From positions 2,880,001-2,912,000 of the forward strand of contig NC_003272.1 in assembly GCF_000009705.1 (NCBI RefSeq): a stretch of 32,000 nucleotides of DNA, in the 5' to 3' direction. This DNA comes from Nostoc sp. PCC 7120 = FACHB-418. GTDB lineage: Bacteria; Cyanobacteriota; Cyanobacteriia; Cyanobacteriales; Nostocaceae. Positions 21,472 to 30,871 of the stretch are shown piece after piece. The translations under genes were made by a program, and so were the position numbers. Below the pieces are notes generated by a model. The model saw only the letters and a list, made by a program, of their open reading frames with translations. It ran no database searches and had not been told where the DNA came from. Numbering within the stretch: the stretch's first letter is position 1; every line of letters starts with the position of its first letter.

Positions 21472-24114
21472 ATGTCTTCAAACCCGCAGCACCTGAGTGG
21501 TAACGAAATTCGCACCCGATTCCTTGACTTCTATGCCCAAAGGGGACACCAAATTTTGGCTAGTGCTTCCCTTGTGCCGGAAGATCCAACCGTGCTGCTG
21601 ACGATCGCGGGGATGCTACCATTTAAGCCAATATTCCTGGGGCAGCGCACACCAGAATTTAAACGGGCGACGACTTCGCAAAAGTGCATCCGTACTAACG
21701 ATATCGAGAATGTAGGACGCACCAAACGACATCAAACCTTCTTTGAAATGCTGGGTAACTTCAGCTTTGGTGACTATTTTAAAGAACAAGCGATCGCCTG
21801 GGGCTGGGAAATCTCCACAGAAGTTTTTGGCTTACCCAAGGAACGCTTAGTAGTCAGCGTCTTTGAGGAAGATGATGAAGCCTACGCAATTTGGCGCGAT
21901 CAAATTGGTGTCACGGAAGCCAGAATCAAGCGCATGGGTGCAGATGATAATTTCTGGGTATCTGGCCCCACTGGCCCTTGTGGCCCTTGTTCGGAGATTT
22001 ATTACGACTTCCACCCAGAAAGGGGCGACGACAATATAGATTTAGAAGACGATACCCGGTTTATCGAGTTTTATAACTTGGTATTCATGCAATACAACCG
22101 GGATGCGTCGGGTAATTTAACACCATTGCAAAACAAAAATATTGATACCGGGATGGGTTTGGAGAGAATCACCCAAATCCTGCAACGAGTACCGAATAAT
22201 TACGAAACTGACTTAATTTTCCCGATTATCGAGACAGCAGCCAAAATTGCTGGCATTGACTACCATAGCAGCGATGAGAGTACTAAAGTTTCCCTCAAGG
22301 TAATTGGTGATCATGTCCGTTCCGTTGTCCACATGATTGCTGATGAAATCCGCGCCTCCAATGTGGGACGGGGTTATGTGTTGCGGCGTTTAATTCGGCG
22401 GGTGGTGCGTCATGGACGATTGATTGGGATTAGCGGGGAGTTTATCAACCAAGTAGCCGAAACTGCGATCGCTCTTTCCGAATCAGCATACCCCAACGTC
22501 CGCCAACGGGAAACCGTCATTAAAGCAGAACTGGAACGGGAAGAAGCTAATTTCCTTAAAACCCTTGATAGAGGGGAGAAACTCCTAGCGGAAATCATCG
22601 CTGAGGTGAAAAAACAAGGTAAAACCGTGATTAGTGGTAAAGATGCTTTCACTCTCTACGATACCCACGGTTTCCCCCTCGAACTCACCCAAGAAATTGC
22701 TGAAGAAAATAACCTGACAGTTGATGTTGAGGGATTCCAAAAACAAATGGAAATCCAACAACAAGGAGGCCGAGGCGCCCACGAAACCATCGATTTAACG
22801 GTGCAAGGTTCCCTCGACAAATTAGCAGAACACATCCACGCTACCGAGTTCATCGGTTATAGCCAAGCTACAGCAACGGCGAAAGTGGAAGTTTTGTTAG
22901 TCGATGGTGTTGTTCAAGAAGAAGCAGAAGCGGGAACAGAAGTACAGATTGTCCTTGACGAAACCCCATTTTATGCAGAATCCGGGGGACAAATCGGCGA
23001 TCGCGGTTATATCTCCGGTGATGGTATCGTTGTTCAGGTGGAAGATGTCAAAAAAGAATCTGATTTCTTCGTGCATTTCGGACGCATCGAACGCGGAACC
23101 CTGCGCGTAGGCGATAACGTCACCGCCCAAATAGACCGCGCTGGTCGTCGTCGCGCCCAAGCTAACCATACTGCAACCCATCTATTACAAGCAGCCTTAA
23201 AGACCATCGTTGATGGTGGCATATCGCAAGCCGGTTCTCTCGTCTCTTTCGACAGATTGCGCTTTGACTTCAACTCTCCCCGTGGCTTGACAGTAGAGGA
23301 AATCCAACAAGTTGAAGAACAAATCAACACCTGGATTGCTGAAGCCCACTCAGCCAAAATCGAACTATTACCTTTAGCTGAGGCGAAAGCTAGAGGGGCG
23401 GTAGCGATGTTTGGGGAAAAATACGGTGATGAAGTCCGAGTCATAGATTTCCCTGGTGTATCTATGGAATTATGCGGTGGTACGCACGTAAGTAATACTG
23501 CGGAGATTGGCGTATTTAAGATTATTTCTGAAGCGGGTGTTGCGTCTGGTGTGCGGCGGATTGAAGCCGTTTCCGGCCTGGCTGTGCTGGATTACTTAAA
23601 TGTGCGAGATAAAGTAGTTAAAGATTTAAGCGATCGCTTTAAAGTCAAACCCGAAGAACTACCAGAGAGAATCACCACTCTGCAAAATGAACTGAGAACT
23701 ACAGAGAAGCAACTAGAAACCCTGAAGGGACAATTGGCGATCGCCAAATCCGACAGCCTACTACAAACAGCAGACACTTGCGGGGACTATAAAATCATAG
23801 TTGCCCAATTGGAAGGCGTAGACCCCGAATCCTTGAAAAGTGCAGCCGAACGCCTACTACAAAAAATCGGTAACGGTGCAGTGGTCTTGGGTTCCGTTCC
23901 CGAAGCCGACAAAGTTAGCTTAGTTGCAGCCTTCAGCCCAGAAGTTAACAAAAAAGGCTTACAGGCGGGTAAATTCATTGGGGCGATCGCCAAAATTTGC
24001 GGCGGCGGCGGCGGCGGTAGACCAAACCTCGCCCAAGCCGGCGGACGCGATGCGAGTAAACTACCAGCAGCCCTGGAACAAGCCCAGAGTGAGTTAAAAT
24101 CGGCCTTAGGTTAG
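21472..24114 (+). CDS. alaS: Alanine--tRNA ligase
   Basis: 880 aa. Features: [56 protein letters not shown], the editing-domain [17 protein letters not shown] and the C-terminal [14 protein letters not shown]. Confidence 0.98.
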
Positions 24115-24431: not shown

Positions 24432-24881
24432 TTAACTTATTTCTTCGATTGGATCTTCTGGCGGAGGATAGCGGTTAACTACTTTGTCAGCCGCACGAAT
24501 ATTCACAATTCTTTCTCGGTTTAAATTTAGCGCCGCTATTGTTGCTTTGCCAGTCGGTGTTAACCCATTAATTTTTAGTTTATCGGCAGACCAAATAAAA
24601 TGCTCACTCCAGAGGCTTTGTCTTGGATTAAATAATGGAACTTCTAAACCAGATTCAGGATCTAAAGCTGTGGTTTTGGCTGACTTTCTACGGTTGCAAT
24701 GAAAACAAGCTAAAGCCAAATTCTCTATAGTATCTTCACCGTTTTGACTTAAGGGAATAATATGATCCACCGTAAATAATACATACTGCCATTTTTCAGA
24801 GGCGTGGCAATATTCACATAATTCAGAGGCTCGTTGACGTATTTGTTGCTGAATTGCATCGGAAATTTTACGACTAGCCAC
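24432..24881 (-). CDS. HNH endonuclease
   Basis: CEYCHASEKWQYVLFTVDHIIPLSQNGEDTIENLALACFHCNRRKS has HNH/zinc-finger spacing. The start is a GTG at 24881. Confidence 0.85.
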   Translation of the reverse strand: MASRKISDAIQQQIRQRASELCEYCHASEKWQYVLFTVDHIIPLSQNGEDTIENLALACFHCNRRKSAKTTALDPESGLEVPLFNPRQSLWSEHFIWSADKLKINGLTPTGKATIAALNLNRERIVNIRAADKVVNRYPPPEDPIEEIS

Positions 24882-24897
24882 ATTTATATAATGCTGG

Positions 24898-25164
24898 TTA
24901 TTGGGGGTTTTGTAAAAGATTGCGAGCTATGCGATTGAGAAAACTCAGGTAGTCGTCAATTTCTTCGTAGCTATCTAGTTCTTGTTCTTCTTCGGATGTG
25001 AGTGGAGAAATTAGTTGTTTGGCTAGTAAAACTTCAATGCGGTTTTGGACAATATTAGAAGCTCTAAATATAGGTATTCCCGCTTGTAACTCAATGCTGA
25101 TTACACCCTCTAAAGGTAAGTTAGCTGGTAGATTGTGAAGCTTTGGCAGCAATGGAGTTGTCAT
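24898..25164 (-). CDS. Small protein with an acidic C-terminus, encoded immediately upstream of the HNH nuclease (candidate partner or immunity protein)
   Basis: The ATG at 25164 gives MTTPLLPKLHNLPANLPLEGVISIELQAGIPIFRASNIVQNRIEVLLAKQLISPLTSEEEQELDSYEEIDDYLSFLNRIARNLL. Its stop lies 16 nt from the HNH start. The track start at 25203 is a TTG. Confidence 0.6.
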   Translation of the reverse strand: MTTPLLPKLHNLPANLPLEGVISIELQAGIPIFRASNIVQNRIEVLLAKQLISPLTSEEEQELDSYEEIDDYLSFLNRIARNLLQNPQ

Positions 25165-25225
25165 AGTTAATTCTATGAAATGTTGTGATTGATTATAGCT
25201 CAATACGGTTTAGTTAAGAGAATAG

Positions 25226-25298
25226 TAGGTTGGGTGTAGCGATAGCGTAACCCAACAAAGTCTTGAGAATGTTGGGTTCCGTTCCTCCACCCAACCTA
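25226..25298. repeat. Nested palindromic AACCCAAC-type hairpin repeat
   Basis: The outer arms TAGGTTGGGTG (25226-25236) and CACCCAACCTA (25288-25298) are perfect complements. The inner arms are AACCCAACA (25249-25257) and TGTTGGGTT (25270-25278). Confidence 0.8.
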
Positions 25299-25420
25299 CA
25301 CAATTCTAAATTGTTAGTAAATCTTGAATCTGGTTCATTTGTTTACTACAAAACACAAAGGTTGACTAAACTCAACAATCACAATGTAAAATGAAACCTA
25401 ACATTTTCGTAGCTTCATTT

Positions 25421-25837
25421 TTATAATTTCAATAATAGTTGTTGGTAGGTAACAATTTCAGTATTTTCAAATCTTTCAATCATTAATAAATCTTGATCAC
25501 CAGTAACTAAAAAATTAGCATTACTATCTTTTGCTAATGCTAAGAGATAATTATCTTTCGGATCTCGACAAATAGATACTTCTGTTGTAATTATTATAAA
25601 TAAACCAATAGCCTGCAAAATTTGAATTAATTCATCAACTTTGTTGCGCGGAAAATATTTTTGTAACTTAGGACGTTGAGTTACTATGATAATTTCCTGT
25701 AATATTTCCTCAGAAATCACTACTTGGACTGTTTCTTCAACTAAAAGATTCTTTAATTCTTTCAATCCCTTACCAATCAGAAAGCTAATCCAAAGATTAG
25801 TATCAATAATTATCTTGATTGCTTTGTTTTCTGGCAT
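25421..25837 (-). CDS. PIN-domain toxin (TIGR00305-like putative toxin component)
   Basis: MPENKAIKIIIDTNLWISFLIGKG...LALAKDSNANFLVTGDQDLL carries the PIN acidic residues in the usual contexts (DTN and TGD-D). Confidence 0.8.
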   Translation of the reverse strand: MPENKAIKIIIDTNLWISFLIGKGLKELKNLLVEETVQVVISEEILQEIIIVTQRPKLQKYFPRNKVDELIQILQAIGLFIIITTEVSICRDPKDNYLLALAKDSNANFLVTGDQDLLMIERFENTEIVTYQQLLLKL

Positions 25838-26051
25838 AAATTTGAGAACGGACGTTTTCTACTTCCTCTGTAATTTCCTCTAAAGATAATTCATCAGTTT
25901 GAAATGTTTCTAGTAACTGGCTTAACTTCTTATTCAATGTTTCTTTTTCTAGCTCTTTGCTGAGTAAAAGCTTTTCTGAATCAGACAGTTGTTTAACTAG
26001 AGTAAGAATTTGCTCAAATGTCAAGGGTAGTTGATAGGTATTTTGTAACAT
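25803..26051 (-). CDS. Antitoxin-like helical protein paired with the PIN toxin
   Basis: The ATG at 26051 gives MLQNTYQLPLTFEQILTLVKQLSDSEKLLLSKELEKETLNKKLSQLLETFQTDELSLEEITEEVENVRSQIYARKQ. Its 3' end overlaps the PIN start by 35 nt. The track ORF extends to a TTG at 26213, which adds a GC-rich hydrophobic segment of uncertain reality (see findings). Confidence 0.65.
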   Translation of the reverse strand: MLQNTYQLPLTFEQILTLVKQLSDSEKLLLSKELEKETLNKKLSQLLETFQTDELSLEEITEEVENVRSQIYARKQSNQDNY

Positions 26052-26229
26052 AGTGTCAAAGATTCTTTTATTTCTAATTATATGTTTATAGCTTTCTTTT
26101 TTGTCTTTATATTTACAATATCGCACTCCATTCGCTGCATGAAACAAAATCACCGCCGAAACCAAGAGCGAACCCAACGCCACAAGCGACGCAACCATGC
26201 CCAAAAACCACAAACAGAAGATATCAGTT

Positions 26230-28653
26230 TTATCTTCTAAATTGGGAACTGATTGAAGGCCATAAAAATAGCAGAATCAACCATACAAGGGCAAAGGGAA
26301 AGGCTATCAGCCCAAAAATGAAACACAAAATAAACTGAAACCAACCACGTTGAGCGAATTTTATTAATGATTTTAGCCACTGAGGATAAGGCATAGCTTC
26401 AAAAGGAAGCTGAAGTTCTTGGAAAATCGACTCGGCTTGATGCCAGACTGCAAATGCTTCTCGAATTTTGCCACACCGATAATAAGCATTGCTCAAATTC
26501 ATTAAGGATGTACCTACGCCATTGCGATCGCCTATGTCCCTTTTAATTTCCAAAGACTGCTGGAACAACTCAATCGCCCGTTGGTACTTTCCCAGGGAGG
26601 AGTAAGCAGTACCTAAATTGTTTAAGGATGTACCTACGCCATTGCGATCGCCTATGTCCCTTTTGATTTCCAAAGACTGCTGGTGGAACTCAATCGCCTG
26701 TTGGTACTTTCCCAGAGAGTAGTAAGCATTGCCTAAATTGTTTAAAGATCTACCTACACCATTGCAATCACCTATATCCCTTGATATTTCCAAAGACTGC
26801 TGGTGGAACTCAATCGCCCGTTGGTACTCTCCCAGGAAGTAGTAAGTATTGCCTAAATTGTTTAAGGATATACTTACGCCATTGCGATCACCCATGTCCC
26901 TAAAGATTTCCAAAGACTGCTGGCGGAACTCAATTGCCCGTTGGTACTCTCCCAAGGAATGGTAAGCATTGCCTAAACCAATTAAGGAATTACCTACGCC
27001 ATTGCGATCGCCTATATCTCTCGATATTTCCAAAGACTGCTGGAACAACTCAATCGCCCGTTGGTACTCTCCCACGGAGTTGTAAGCATTGCCTAAACCC
27101 ATTAAGGAACCACCTACGCCATTGCGATCGCCTATATCTCTTGATATTTCCAAAGACTGCTGGAACAACTCAATCGCCCGTTGGTACTCTCCCACGGAGT
27201 TGTAAGTATTGCCTAAACCGATTAAGGAATTACTTACGCCGTTGCGATCGCCTATATCCCTAAATATTTCCAAAGACTGCTGGAACAACTCAATCGCCCG
27301 TTGGTACTCTCCCAGGTAACGGTAAGCATTGCCTAATGCAGTGAGAGAAGCCCCATAATTCCAATTTTCTCGCTCACCAATTTCTTTCCATTTACTGATT
27401 AACTGACCATATAATTCTACTTTGTCTACGAAAAAACCGCACAGGCCTAAAAACTTACTACAGACTCGAATGTTATCAAAGGCAGAGTCATAATCTTGCA
27501 ACTGATAAAAGTGATCAAATATTTCCAAATATTCTCTAACATCGTCTTTTGTTGTCCAAGGTGGTTGTTTAGCAACTGAGCGATAATAATCAATGGCTCG
27601 TTGATGCGCCTCACTCTGATCGCCGGCTTTATACCGCACATACTCCAACACCACAGGCTGAAACTCAAATCGCCGCTTACCATTGAGTTTTTCTACCAAC
27701 AAAGAACGCTTAACAATATTCCTTAATTCTTTCTCAATCTCTGCTGCTGAATTTCCTGGCAACATAGCCACGGCTGCTGCACTGTCAACCGCACCACGAT
27801 ACACACTAATATTCAGCAATAACGCCTTTTGTAACTCACTCAATCTATGAAAACTGGCATCCAACACCAACACCATCCCCACATTTTCCCGGCGATGCAC
27901 ACCTACCACTTGAGAATCTGTCAACAACTGCTGCAAATTCCCTAAGCCTAAATCTGCTAATCTACTTAAATCCGGGTCTTGGGGGTATTCTTCCTTTAAT
28001 AAATCTGCTACTAATCTCAACAATAGGGGATGTCCATCGACTAATTCCACAAACTCCCCTAAATTTCCTTTAATGCCCAATGCGGTTAACAGTGCTACCC
28101 CTTCATCTACTTGTAAACCTTTCAGGGTTAACCACTCAAAGCCTTTTAATTCTGGTCTTTCCCTGGTGGTGACTAGCACCTTACTATTACCACCAGATTC
28201 GATCCATGCTTGGAAAAAGTCGCCGTAAAATAAACTTCCCCACTGTCTATCAGGTTGTAATACACTTTCCAGGTTGTCAATAATCAGTAAAAATTGCCCA
28301 GAACGTAAACACCTAACCAACGCCTCCACTAACTGCGTTTCTTGTTCTGGTACATAAAAGCCAAATTCTGTTAATACTTGTCTGGCTAAATCGCTAAAAC
28401 TTGCACCATTACTGACATCAGCCCAAAACCGCTTGGGAAAATCTGCTATTTCGTCATAAATCTTCGTCGCCAGCGTTGATTTACCTGTACCACCGATGCC
28501 TTCTATACCGATTAAAAAGGTATTATCATCAGTTAACCATTGCTGTATTTGAGCGTATTCTTTTGTTCGTCCTTGCCAGTAAGCCAAACTTTTACCGGGA
28601 TTCCCCGCTTTGAGAACCCCCGGCGATTCCGTCTTGGTACTGCTTTCTATCAA
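26230..28653 (-). CDS. STAND NTPase: NB-ARC (AP-ATPase) domain, helical linker, about 8 TPR units and a hydrophobic C-terminal tail (NLR-like)
   Basis: P-loop GIEGIGGTGKSTLA (28474-28500). RNBS-A-like RFWADVS. Walker B LLIIDNLE. RNBS-B-like SKVLVTTR. GLPL-like DGHPLLL. Then 40-aa TPR units GEYQRAIELFQQSLEIxRDIGDRNGVxxSLxxLGNxY. The tail reads WFQFILCFIFGLIAFPFALVWLILLFLWP. The only start codon before the P-loop is TTG (28653); there is no ATG or GTG. Confidence 0.9.
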   Translation of the reverse strand: MIESSTKTESPGVLKAGNPGKSLAYWQGRTKEYAQIQQWLTDDNTFLIGIEGIGGTGKSTLATKIYDEIADFPKRFWADVSNGASFSDLARQVLTEFGFYVPEQETQLVEALVRCLRSGQFLLIIDNLESVLQPDRQWGSLFYGDFFQAWIESGGNSKVLVTTRERPELKGFEWLTLKGLQVDEGVALLTALGIKGNLGEFVELVDGHPLLLRLVADLLKEEYPQDPDLSRLADLGLGNLQQLLTDSQVVGVHRRENVGMVLVLDASFHRLSELQKALLLNISVYRGAVDSAAAVAMLPGNSAAEIEKELRNIVKRSLLVEKLNGKRRFEFQPVVLEYVRYKAGDQSEAHQRAIDYYRSVAKQPPWTTKDDVREYLEIFDHFYQLQDYDSAFDNIRVCSKFLGLCGFFVDKVELYGQLISKWKEIGERENWNYGASLTALGNAYRYLGEYQRAIELFQQSLEIFRDIGDRNGVSNSLIGLGNTYNSVGEYQRAIELFQQSLEISRDIGDRNGVGGSLMGLGNAYNSVGEYQRAIELFQQSLEISRDIGDRNGVGNSLIGLGNAYHSLGEYQRAIEFRQQSLEIFRDMGDRNGVSISLNNLGNTYYFLGEYQRAIEFHQQSLEISRDIGDCNGVGRSLNNLGNAYYSLGKYQQAIEFHQQSLEIKRDIGDRNGVGTSLNNLGTAYSSLGKYQRAIELFQQSLEIKRDIGDRNGVGTSLMNLSNAYYRCGKIREAFAVWHQAESIFQELQLPFEAMPYPQWLKSLIKFAQRGWFQFILCFIFGLIAFPFALVWLILLFLWPSISSQFRR
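26400..27365. repeat. Tandem 120-bp coding repeats (TPR units) inside the STAND gene
   Basis: The string (A/G)TTGC(G/A)ATC(G/A)CC(T/C)AT recurs at 26521, 26641, 26761, 26881, 27001, 27121 and 27241, an exact 120-bp period. Units 27001-27120 and 27121-27240 differ at about 6 of 120 positions. Five of the seven units contain an intact HIP1 site GCGATCGC; the units at 26761 and 26881 carry degenerate versions. Confidence 0.95.
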
Positions 28654-28700
28654 CTCGACTATTTTTTGCTGTGCAGTACCATAAACAGCAATATAGTTAG

Positions 28701-29135
28701 TTACTTTGGGCTGTTGATATTCTTGGTAAAGTCATATTTTGGCTGATTAACATCACCTGCTGTATTTATCTGTATAGCGTCATTGTAAGCTTGAGCATTG
28801 AGATTAACTGAGCTATTATCAGATTTTGTTACTTGCAAAATCTTGGCTATTTCCTCAGCCAGTGTTGTATCAGCATCCAAAATCTTCTTGAGTTGCACTT
28901 GCAAAACAGTTTGGAAACTTTTGTCCTCTGGATTCTCTGCTAAATCTCCAGCCGCTTCTTTGGCGGCTTCCTTCGCCTCTACTTTAGGATGTAACTTACC
29001 CCAAATAGCCTTGGCTTTATCCCAACCATCTGCACCAGCTTGTTGATATGCACCTTCGGCAACTTTACTACCCACATTCAGCAGAGATGGCAGATAGGGT
29101 GCAAGAAATGTAACGATTGAGGCGATATCTATCAT
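28701..29135 (-). CDS. 144-aa helical protein with a hydrophobic N-terminal helix and a Q/N-rich C-terminal tail; a detached (or frameshifted-off) N-terminal module of the STAND NTPase
   Basis: MIDIASIVTFLAPYLPSLLNVGSKVAEGAYQQAG...KVEAKEAAKEAAGDLAENPEDKSFQTVLQVQLKKILDADTTLAEEIAKILQ...SSVNLNAQAYNDAIQINTAGDVNQPKYDF. Its stop lies 47 nt upstream of the NTPase TTG, and the NTPase frame is already open from 28731. Confidence 0.7.
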   Translation of the reverse strand: MIDIASIVTFLAPYLPSLLNVGSKVAEGAYQQAGADGWDKAKAIWGKLHPKVEAKEAAKEAAGDLAENPEDKSFQTVLQVQLKKILDADTTLAEEIAKILQVTKSDNSSVNLNAQAYNDAIQINTAGDVNQPKYDFTKNINSPK

Positions 29136-29237
29136 TGTGAGAACTTATACAATACGTTTGTAACTGTTAGGTAGGATCTTAGCGTATTTACTTAGGTGTG
29201 AAAAGTAATGTAGCAGTTTGTAGTTGAGTCAAATACA

Positions 29238-29325
29238 GACCTAACCCCCAGCCCCTTCCCTACAAGGGAAGGGGAGTAATACTCAAAGCCTCTCTCCTTG
29301 TAGGAGAGAGGTTTGGAGAGAGGTC
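29238..29325. mobile_element. Second copy of the two-hairpin MITE-like core, in the same orientation as 24276-24391
   Basis: CCTAACCCCCAGCCCCTTCCCTACAAGGGAAGGGG...AGCCTCTCTCCTTGTAGGAGAGAGGTTTGGAGAGAGG. It is flanked by direct repeats ATGTAGCAGTTT (29209-29220) and ATGTAGCAGCTT (29358-29369). A related single hairpin AACCCCTTTCC...GGGAAGGGGTT lies at 29443-29469. Confidence 0.6.
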
Positions 29326-29542
29326 AGAGTGCATTGCATACAAACGATAGGCGCTATATGTAGCAGCTTATTGTTGTACTTACAAAGTAAAAATATTAGT
29401 CTAATCTATTACTAGTATTAGGGCATAAGGTGCGATATTTTTAACCCCTTTCCAACACGGGAAGGGGTTATGTTTTATGTATCTCACCTTTACTTAGTGC
29501 GATCGCACCTACTTAGAGGCTATCCTTTGACAATGGAACTGA

Positions 29543-30310
29543 TTAAGGATAATCAAAAACCACACGACCGCCTGGCCGCCAGTCGCAATGGATGAAACCT
29601 CGGTGCATTCCTCTACCTAGTCCTGTACAGTCAGAAGCACGGCAAATTTGTAAGAGTTTGCCAAAATTACCATCTACAGGAGCAATATCCAAAGCTAGAC
29701 CGTTAATATGCTGCGAAAAACGAGCGCCACCTATGCGACGATTCACAGCAGATGTACGATAGGCGGAATTAATGGAAATTGGGCTATCGTATTTATCTCG
29801 AATTTTGCCAAAGCCTCTGGCTGCTTTGATAATGTTGTTAATAATTGTTTTCGATTCGGGATTTCTTTGGGGGTCACATCCCTTAGTGATTTCTCCCCAA
29901 GTTAAGGGAATACCCGCCACCACCAATTCATTTTCGTAAACTGTTTCTCCAGTCACCAACCTTAAGGAACGTCCAGTTTTAGTTCCTAATGTTGATGCAG
30001 GTAAAGGTGTGAGTATTCGAGTTTGTTCTTCATTAGTTTGATGGTCTTCGGCAATCTCTAGTAATGTAGCCGCAGTAGTCGGCCCCAATAAATCAGGGGA
30101 ATCTAGCCAAACGCTCTCTTTAAATTCTGCAAATGCTTTTTGGGTGAGATTACCAGCAATGCCGTCAACACTACCTTTATAAAGTCCCTTCTTATTCAGT
30201 AGGGTTTGAATTTCTTTGATAATATCAGTATCAGCTTCGCTAATCTTAACAGTACTATTACTGGCTTGAAATTTCTCTAAGCTAGAAAATTCTACGGTAG
30301 ATTCTGCCAT
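29543..30310 (-). CDS. Peptidoglycan-binding domain + M15-family zinc D,D-peptidase (cell-wall hydrolase)
   Basis: The ATG at 30310, preceded by AAGGAG, gives MAESTVEFSS... A PG_binding_1-like segment reads IKEIQTLLNKKGLYKGSVDGIAGNLTQKAF. The M15 zinc motifs are SAYRTSAVNRRIGGARFSQHINGLALD (H-x6-D) and GFIHCDWR. The track start at 30409 is a TTG. Confidence 0.85.
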   Translation of the reverse strand: MAESTVEFSSLEKFQASNSTVKISEADTDIIKEIQTLLNKKGLYKGSVDGIAGNLTQKAFAEFKESVWLDSPDLLGPTTAATLLEIAEDHQTNEEQTRILTPLPASTLGTKTGRSLRLVTGETVYENELVVAGIPLTWGEITKGCDPQRNPESKTIINNIIKAARGFGKIRDKYDSPISINSAYRTSAVNRRIGGARFSQHINGLALDIAPVDGNFGKLLQICRASDCTGLGRGMHRGFIHCDWRPGGRVVFDYP

Positions 30311-30871
30311 GAATACATCTCCTTGGGTAATGAATCGAAGTATTACTGCTTCAGAGTTTTTCTCTTGCTGTTTAATGTGGTGATAAAGAACTACAATTCC
30401 CTCGGTCAAATTTCCAATAAGACAAGATTACTCATTGGAAAAAGTCATACAAAGCCATGTAGGCGGGTATAGCTGCGCTTAGGGTAGTAGTAGGAGTTGA
30501 GCAGCGTATTGAATAAATAAGCCTTAGTCCCTTTATATACTAGTAGTTTTGACTAGTCATCTAGTATAACTCTGTAAAATAAAATCGCAAATAATTAGTA
30601 AAAATGATACCAGGTTTAATTATTTTATTGATATATGAATGAACATCAGAACTTAGGAAAATAACTGATTTTCCAGGCATCTGTCACCTTATTTCTACAA
30701 ATGGGTATTATCTAATTCAGTTATATTTAGAATAATGATATTGTGATAAATAGTACATTAGTAGCTAAAACACATAATTATTTCCTGATTTTGTATTAAA
30801 ATTTATTAATAGAAATTGTCGATATCAACTCAAAAGCTGTGACTAGTACACACGTCATCAAGGACATCTGC

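Follow-up and report, generated by a model that had tools for sequence, protein, structure and literature searches.

A conserved candidate -1 ribosomal frameshift between a Bell-like effector gene and an NLR gene in Nostoc and related cyanobacteria

Background

How should one read a bacterial locus in which a short reading frame runs into a long one on the same strand, one base out of register: as a damaged gene, as two ordinary genes, or as one message that is recoded during translation? The question is raised by a 32,000-nucleotide (nt) stretch of the genome of Nostoc sp. PCC 7120 = FACHB-418 (assembly GCF_000009705.1, contig NC_003272.1, positions 2,880,001 to 2,912,000), the whole of which we call the window and whose numbering is used throughout unless another locus is named. 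On its minus strand a 144-amino-acid (aa) open reading frame (ORF1) overlaps the frame of an NB-ARC/TPR protein of the NLR type. The initial annotation of this DNA had attributed the break between the two to a 32-nt segment flanked by direct repeats, and offered a duplication or frameshift (a recent pseudogene or an on/off switch), an assembly error and a genuine two-gene arrangement as explanations. The on/off switch comes nearest to what we propose here, although programmed -1 ribosomal frameshifting as such was not considered. We argue that the one-base break is probably not damage: because a slippery sequence and a stop codon are kept together in 30 related loci, ribosomes most likely slip at this point, and we consider it quite likely that a conserved programmed -1 ribosomal frameshift yields both the 144-aa effector and a 968-aa effector-NLR fusion. 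The work is a comparative sequence analysis throughout, carried out on loci that are related by descent.

Results

ORF1, taken here as frame 0, extends from the ATG at 29135 to the TAA at 28703-28701 (minus strand, as for all features of the locus) and ends in ...NINSPK-stop. The NB-ARC/TPR frame lies at -1 relative to ORF1; it is closed upstream by a TGA at 28734-28732 and stays open from 28731 to 26230, both frames thus being open across 28731-28704. The initial annotation was right about the one-base offset and about the position of each of these stops and of the open frame. Decoded after the proposed shift, ORF2 would occupy 26230..28704, with GTA (28704-28702) as its first codon and 824 aa plus stop, comprising a linker, an NB-ARC domain, a TPR region and a hydrophobic C-terminus. 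The NB-ARC domain maps to 27994..28563 (Pfam PF00931, E 2.8e-13, aa 57-246 of the 833-aa open frame), with the P-loop GIGGTGKS at 28500-28477, and the TPR sensor region to 26398..27501 (Pfam TPR_12, E 4.4e-79). This NB-ARC and repeat frame adjoins and overlaps ORF1 on the same strand and is collinear with it. An N-terminal-module, NB-ARC and TPR protein of about 950 aa, as anticipated earlier, can indeed be obtained from the locus, the predicted trans-frame product being 968 aa long.

Searches with ORF1 gave 207 homologues at E <= 0.001, and an identical ORF1 protein is present on 75 contigs. It had been suggested that orthologues be checked for fusion to the NTPase; the best 120 of the 207 homologues are all free-standing proteins of at most 164 aa, from filamentous cyanobacteria. 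The N-terminal 100 residues are well conserved in the family, while the tails fall into two main classes and a few other motif types. Loci were fetched for 80 genomic and 35 metagenomic homologues and for three with unusual tails, and their junctions were analysed by script. Class A, to which the window belongs, comprises 30 loci (the window, 23 genomes and six metagenome or Logan contigs) from genera that include Nostoc, Anabaena, Aliinostoc, Nodularia, Aulosira, Calothrix and Aphanizomenon, with tails that read ...SVNLNAQSYDESIQINTAGDVNQPTYDLSRNINSPK-stop, or else ...YDNPK, ...NEKK or ...GEKK.

In all 30 class A loci the NLR frame is the -1 frame, and in all of them ORF1 ends in A_AAG. The proposed shift site in the window is the slippery heptamer C_CCA_AAG at 28710-28704 (frame-0 codons CCA 28709-07 and AAG 28706-04), directly followed by the frame-0 stop TAA (28701..28703), itself a possible "shifty stop" stimulator. 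CCCAAAG is found in 27 of the 30 loci and a full X_XXY_YYZ heptamer in 29, the stop abuts the heptamer in 29 of 30, and the entire 10-mer CCCAAAG-TAA (window 28710-28701) is invariant in 26. The other four keep A_AAG: L017 and L081, whose tails are unrelated, have AAAAAAG-TAA, L083 has CGTAAAG-TAG, and L084 retains CCCAAAG with its stop 6 nt later. Heptamer swaps (CCCAAAG to AAAAAAG in L017 and L081) therefore occur only between slippery forms. Upstream, a stop closes the -1 frame at a distance of 0-21 nt from the heptamer, abutting it in six loci; in the window the TGA at 28732..28734 leaves 21 nt of -1 frame. Three synonymous positions within the heptamer never vary, even though synonymous divergence (dS) between the window and the other class A loci is 0.37-1.1, and the codons concerned are not preferred ones: in these ORFs AGC/AAC represent about 26%, CCA about 52% and AAG about 39% of the respective synonymous sets. 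By comparison, of the conserved-residue columns in ORF1 no more than 28% show a single invariant codon. Judged from these junctions, the conservation of C_CCA_AAG plus TAA is far beyond chance.

Two class A loci deserve a word of their own. L081 (Bell gene at 991-1416 of that locus, junction at about 1407-1416) carries A_AAA_AAG-TAA and a -1 NLR whose linker is unrelated to the ESPGVLKAGNP type, with a TGA closing the -1 frame directly before the heptamer. L011 keeps an intact junction, and its NLR ORF (downstream of 5430) is broken after 141 codons; it is probably a decayed copy.

The recurrence of the junction bears directly on whether a single gene was broken here, by a recent 32-nt duplication or a 1-nt indel that left a pseudogene or a phase-variable switch, or by a sequencing or assembly error. 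The repeats on which this idea was built do exist, CAGCCAAAA at 28745-28737 and CAGCCCAAA at 28713-28705, 32 nt apart, and removal of the 32 nt would restore the frame, just as any deletion of 3n+2 nt would; in-frame all-in-one Bell-like relatives exist as well. The repeat, however, is nothing special, since CAGCCNAAA has eight copies in the window against 1.6 expected, and it can hardly be the cause of the split, as its upstream copy is absent from orthologous junctions (CAGCCAACC, AATCCAAAT and so on). We rejected the direct-repeat idea because the 9-mer is a common word in the window and its upstream copy is not conserved. The split itself is present in 30 loci, in independent assemblies and genera, the identical ORF1 protein occurs on 75 contigs, and no in-frame fused version was found among close relatives. 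Because an identical junction recurs in 30 loci across many genera, at dS up to about 1, neither duplication nor recent pseudogenisation nor assembly error can explain the locus. The ratio of nonsynonymous to synonymous substitution (dN/dS) is 0.20-0.37 for ORF1 against its orthologues and 0.17-0.24 over the first 420 codons of the NLR, that is, about 0.2 in both frames in spite of the break. Because dN/dS is this low at dS 0.37-1.1, both intact ORFs are, on the evidence of their substitution patterns, functional genes under purifying selection whose synonymous sites have had time to change. We regard a broken gene or a data error as next to impossible.

If the break is old and maintained, the NLR might simply be a second gene with its own start, a weak or non-canonical codon used either independently of ORF1 or through termination-reinitiation coupling, with ...PK-stop at the end of ORF1 conserved for protein reasons. 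The candidate starts would be the TTG at 28653, a TTG 41 codons past the junction, or AUU/AUA just after the stop. The initial annotation had correctly seen that the NLR frame of the window has no ATG or GTG before the P-loop, only the TTG at 28653 and a later TTG, neither with a Shine-Dalgarno (SD)-like sequence. The first of these (28651..28653) is the NLR start according to a mechanical ORF call, and the second, which encodes the Leu of KSLAYW (codon 41 after the shift), is shared by most class A loci and lies ahead of the NB-ARC match in Pfam. SD sequences are absent from many cyanobacterial genes, which counts in favor of two genes, as do a weak promoter-like match at 28717-28690 and the overlap of 42% of Bell/NLR pairs reported by Dyrka et al. 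(bioRxiv 10.1101/2020.01.06.895854).

Against this, no start codon is conserved across class A. At the position of TTG 28653 just about half of the class A loci have TTG, the others reading TGG, TTA or ATT. In at least six loci the stretch from the junction to the conserved ESPGVLKAGNP motif is devoid of ATG, GTG and TTG alike, and the gene caller's start in L081, which is the earliest one available there, falls within the P-loop. It had been reasoned that a two-gene arrangement would show in orthologues as separate ORFs with a conserved NTPase start: the separate ORFs are consistently there, the start is not. The stretch after the junction nevertheless shows coding constraint. Indels directly after the ORF1 stop are of 3, 6 or 9 nt, all multiples of 3, and codons 15-39 after the junction, which precede the TTG at codon 41 and also, in six loci or more, every ATG, GTG or TTG, show a normal coding pattern in the NLR frame (entropy 0.41/0.25/0.71 at codon positions 1/2/3) and match internal protein sequence in the class B NLRs described below. 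A predicted peptide of this stretch, VTNYIAVYGTAQQK, could arise only from translation upstream of TTG 28653. A scan for promoters and terminators found no terminator between the ORFs, and promoter-like matches, including the weak one just mentioned, were no commoner than in shuffled sequence (6 vs 7.9). An ordinary overlap, moreover, would require neither the -1 frame, nor A_AAG, nor the adjacent stop (29 to 30 of 30 loci), nor swaps restricted to slippery forms. Independent initiation may occur at individual loci, yet it leaves the family-wide pattern unexplained, and as an account of the locus we consider two ordinary genes unlikely.

The second main tail class, class B, indicates what the class A NLR lacks. 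Class B small proteins end in ...NIQMSANAYDQSTVKQVGKIDANQVSF-stop and are followed about 30-300 nt downstream, in any frame, by an NLR with its own ATG. The N-terminus of this NLR, MAEEPNP..NIEMNLTAYGNSKVTQVGQINAAEV, mirrors the tail of the small protein and continues through ...LESSTKxESPGVLKAGNPxKSLAYWQGR... into the NB-ARC domain. One such locus, L048 of Tolypothrix tenuis PCC 7101 (BAY96875.1/BAY96876.1), is listed as BASS10 in Table S2 of Dyrka et al., and class B loci represent the amyloid-signalling pairs (Bell domain, BASS motif and NLR) that Dyrka, Saupe and colleagues described. The spacers of several of them (L020, L032, L036, L044, L050, L053 and L089-L093) are filled with short tandem repeats, about 20-300 nt after the Bell stop, that give SSSEHQV or PSSKQER when translated in one frame; in class A the two ORFs are not separated by a spacer at all.

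The class A NLR ORF opens directly in the linker (VTNYIAVYGTAQQ...ESPGVLKAGNP), the motif-bearing N-terminus of about 40 aa and its ATG being missing. The matching motif is not encoded in the class A NLR gene and is found only in the predicted trans-frame product. A single BLASTP alignment (E 1e-40) runs across the junction of this product, ...SSVNLNAQAYNDAIQINTAGDVNQPKYDFTKNINSPK|VTNYIAVYGTAQQKIVELIESSTKTESPGVLKAGNP..., and matches it to the N-terminus of P0123, an NLR of class B, motif against motif, linker against linker and P-loop against P-loop. A search with the junction peptide gave no in-frame fusion among close relatives, where the high-coverage matches are N-termini of class B NLRs. 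Distant Bell-like relatives are fused in frame to NACHT or to NB-ARC plus TPR (P0165, 953 aa; P0176; P0271), and because of these fusions a Bell-(motif)-NOD-TPR architecture can be taken as viable.

ORF1 itself consists of two parts. Residues 1-101 (28833..29135) form a Bell-like all-helical domain with a hydrophobic first helix, 50-70% identical to class B proteins such as that of L048 (BAY96875.1); an AlphaFold2 model has five helices over aa 4-101, with confidence (pLDDT) mostly 73-91 and a dip to 57 at aa 21-30. Residues 109-136 (28728..28811) carry a BASS10-like tail motif, SVNLNAQAYNDAIQINTAGDVNQPKYDF, a putative amyloid motif that aligns with the class B tails as well as with the N-terminal motif of class B NLRs and falls for the most part within a stretch, aa 104-135, that is disordered in the model (pLDDT < 50). 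ORF1 has no matches in Pfam, NCBIfam or PADLOC, and neither a sequence-profile search of the PDB nor a Foldseek search of the model against the PDB gave anything significant (best E 0.054 and 2.1), so that the Bell label rests on homology to proteins in the list of Dyrka et al. On that homology to published members, ORF1 is a Bell-like helical domain with an amyloid-motif-like tail. In the sister class, P0065 and P0115 (L065) are Bell proteins that lack the usual stop after ...EVSF and have unrelated C-terminal extensions of 17-30 aa.

Slippage could also take place during transcription, if RNA polymerase added one A at the A run in a fraction of transcripts. Productive polymerase slippage is known from runs of about 7-9 As or more, and because 27 of the 30 loci, the window included, have just the three As of CCCAAAG, this route is implausible for the family and we give it very little credence. 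In its favor, L017 and L081 have seven consecutive As, and some bacteria use transcriptional slippage where others frameshift, e.g., in Thermus dnaX (PMC5009743).

As for ribosomal slippage, E. coli ribosomes are described as highly prone to shift on C_CCA_AAG, as they are on A_AAA_AAG and G_GGA_AAG (Atkins et al. 2016, PMC5009743), and Z_ZZN tetramers, of which A_AAG is one, count as accepted motifs for a -1 shift (Sharma et al. 2014, PMC4066793). As stimulators we looked for a hairpin or pseudoknot 5-9 nt downstream of the heptamer and/or an SD-like sequence upstream. In the YDNPK and EKK subclades a strong SD-like AGGAG(G) precedes the heptamer by 8-11 nt (-7 to -11 kcal/mol); the junction of L015 is one that bears AGGAGG. 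Downstream, a tentative RNA stem pairs GGUACUGC (28680-28673) with GCAGUACC (28643-28636), and a possible pseudoknot arm pairs UUGCUG (28691-28686) with CAGCAA (28671-28666), the whole element covering 28636..28691. Across 22 loci 94% of the cells of the stem are paired, with one compensatory pair (A-U to G-C through G-U intermediates). In the first nine codons after the shift (window 28677-28703; 17 class A loci) third positions vary less than first and second ones (0.36 vs 0.55), the reverse of the normal coding pattern found from codon 15 onward, which suggests a constraint at the RNA level just 3' of the shift site. A search of Rfam with 28300-29400 gave sub-threshold chance matches only.

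Several observations weigh against a programmed frameshift, and these stimulators are the weak point of the case. Proteomic or ribosome-profiling records covering the locus were looked for, and nothing usable turned up for PCC 7120. The shift site of the window has no SD-like stimulator (-0.5 kcal/mol), and the downstream RNA structure is weak (RNAalifold consensus -5.4 kcal/mol, window z-score -1.2) and begins 12-23 nt after the heptamer, which is unusually far. In E. coli, A_AAG is slippery through the sole tRNA-Lys (UUU), and what holds for E. coli may not be the situation in the Nostocales; ARAGORN found no tRNA-Lys genes in the window or the fetched loci, a result that is uninformative on the tRNA-Lys complement. 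As for the conservation, 28% of the conserved-residue codons in ORF1 are invariant at the codon level, and because the class A loci share ancestry, 30 of 30 does not represent 30 independent trials. The TTG at codon 41, finally, could in principle start a shorter NLR.

A few features of the NLR and its surroundings are recorded here for completeness. The TPR region contains 7.1 tandem copies of a 120-nt (40-aa) unit at 26483-27336 (minus strand, 88% matches, Tandem Repeats Finder), and near-identical units of this kind are the repeat type that permits rapid repeat shuffling in fungal NLRs. The C-terminus of the NLR (26233-26346, minus strand) has about 38 hydrophobic residues (GWFQFILCFIFGLIAFPFALVWLILLFLWPS...) and resembles a membrane anchor, unusual for a STAND NTPase. 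Beyond it on the minus strand, an unannotated 136-aa ORF (25803-26213) is overlapped by a PIN_3-domain ORF (25421-25837), possibly as a toxin-antitoxin pair, and an HNH endonuclease ORF lies at 24432-24881 of the same 24432-26213 interval; alaS occupies 21472-24114 on the plus strand. Upstream of ORF1, G+C-rich palindromic hairpins (29238-29325 and 29442-29470), give sub-threshold miRNA-like Rfam matches and a terminator-like stem of 12 bp; they may belong to a repeat element or terminate the gene upstream. A peptidase M15 and peptidoglycan-binding ORF lies upstream as well (29543-30409, minus strand).

Discussion

We propose the following course of events at class A loci. Ribosomes would start at the ATG at 29135 and translate the Bell-like domain and the amyloid-motif tail. 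Most would terminate at the TAA at 28703-28701 and release the 144-aa protein, while a fraction would slip back one base at 28710-28704, tRNA-Pro re-pairing with CCC instead of CCA and tRNA-Lys with AAA instead of AAG. A second possibility is that tRNA-Lys slips by itself in the P site, again onto AAA, with the stop codon in the A site awaiting a release factor, a route that would explain both the adjacent stop in 29 of the 30 loci and how L083 manages with GTA_AAG-TAG. Slipped ribosomes would then read GTA ACT AAC... through NB-ARC and TPR, giving a product composed of Bell domain, amyloid motif, linker, NB-ARC and TPR. From the weak stimulators we therefore expect a modest frameshift efficiency, as would be fitting if the sensor is rare and the effector abundant.

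What such a product might do is suggested by the sister two-gene systems, in which the NLR's own N-terminal copy of the motif presumably templates the effector. In class A the NLR-side motif and start codon would have been lost, and both would be supplied by the frameshift. Sensing and nucleation would fall to the long form, made in few copies and carrying exactly the motif of the abundant short effector. Once a ligand drove it to oligomerise, the long form would seed a homotypic amyloid, recruiting and activating the free short form, and the frameshift rate would fix the sensor:effector ratio. We put forward this signalling model, in which the long form nucleates the short form through an identical motif, tentatively, at somewhat less than even chances. 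During phage attack the ratio could also shift with tRNA-Lys status or with the efficiency of termination.

The closest known systems are the Bell/BASS10/NLR pairs of Dyrka et al. (bioRxiv 10.1101/2020.01.06.895854), which have a homologous Bell-like domain and tail motif, the same gene order and taxa, and an orthologous NB-ARC/TPR NLR with the linker ESPGVLKAGNP...KSLAYWQGR. In the published pairs, however, two separate or trivially overlapping genes are found, the NLR gene providing both its ATG and an N-terminal copy of the motif, whereas the class A NLR lies in the -1 frame behind a slippery heptamer and a stop, with neither ATG nor motif of its own. The class A tails QINTAG, NINSPK and YDNPK are absent from the supplementary text files of that study, including its pair table, and frameshifting is never mentioned in the paper. 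By homology the locus belongs to the Bell/BASS10-NLR family, and it lacks the motif in the NLR gene; recoding appears to take the place of this motif and of the start codon. All-in-one Bell-NLR proteins such as P0165, P0176 and P0271 have the architecture predicted for the 968-aa product, yet as single ORFs in one frame they are unable to also release a free effector from the same message. A comparable logic is found in fungal HET-S/NWD2 and in E. coli Bab/Agp (bioRxiv 10.1101/2024.11.07.622273), where a sensor nucleates an amyloid that activates an adjacently encoded helical, membrane-targeting executioner; those systems consist of two genes with related, non-identical motifs, whereas the class A sensor motif would be the very same translated sequence as that of the effector.

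Among known frameshifts, a comparable one is in a cellular, non-mobile gene, E. coli copA, where a -1 shift at a site that is reportedly also C_CCA_AAG gives short and long proteins with a common N-terminus. This programmed frameshift event (Meydan et al. 2017) is described in PMC5009743 and PMC9548414. It runs in the opposite sense, since the long pump is read in frame 0 and the shift leads to a short chaperone, whereas in class A frame 0 is short and the shift leads to the long product; copA also has a downstream pseudoknot, and none at the class A site is convincing. The phage tail chaperones G/GT (G_GGA_AAG) and dnaX tau/gamma (A_AAA_AAG) likewise make short and long forms that have their N-terminus in common, in a ratio set by shift efficiency, and their heptamers are of the X_XXA_AAG type, as in class A (the dnaX heptamer itself is used by L017 and L081). 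An SD-like sequence upstream, as in dnaX, is present in some class A subclades. These proteins and their biology are unrelated to ours, and in class A, unlike in them, the stop abuts the heptamer. We found no prior description in the literature searched on frameshifting in combination with Bell, NB-ARC, NLR, Nostoc or Anabaena, nor any of the class A frameshift in the GeneTack survey or in a 2026 survey of bacterial STANDs. On comparative grounds we rate the locus as a candidate addition to the -1 programmed frameshifts of cellular genes, one that lies in an NLR-type cell-death system of bacteria.

Conclusions

Few conserved programmed frameshifts are known from cellular, non-mobile genes of bacteria, those of dnaX, copA, cdd and csoS2 among them. 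If our reading is true, the class A loci would add one more, in a bacterial NLR-type immune or cell-death system. The class A subfamily is absent from the supplementary files, motif-pair table included, of the survey that defined these systems, and annotation pipelines assign its NLRs arbitrary downstream starts, once inside the P-loop. It would represent a third architecture, between separate effector and sensor genes that share a motif and all-in-one fusions, in which one mRNA encodes a complete two-component amyloid-signalling module by recoding. The control of sensor:effector ratio and of motif identity in amyloid-based signalling would thereby become testable.

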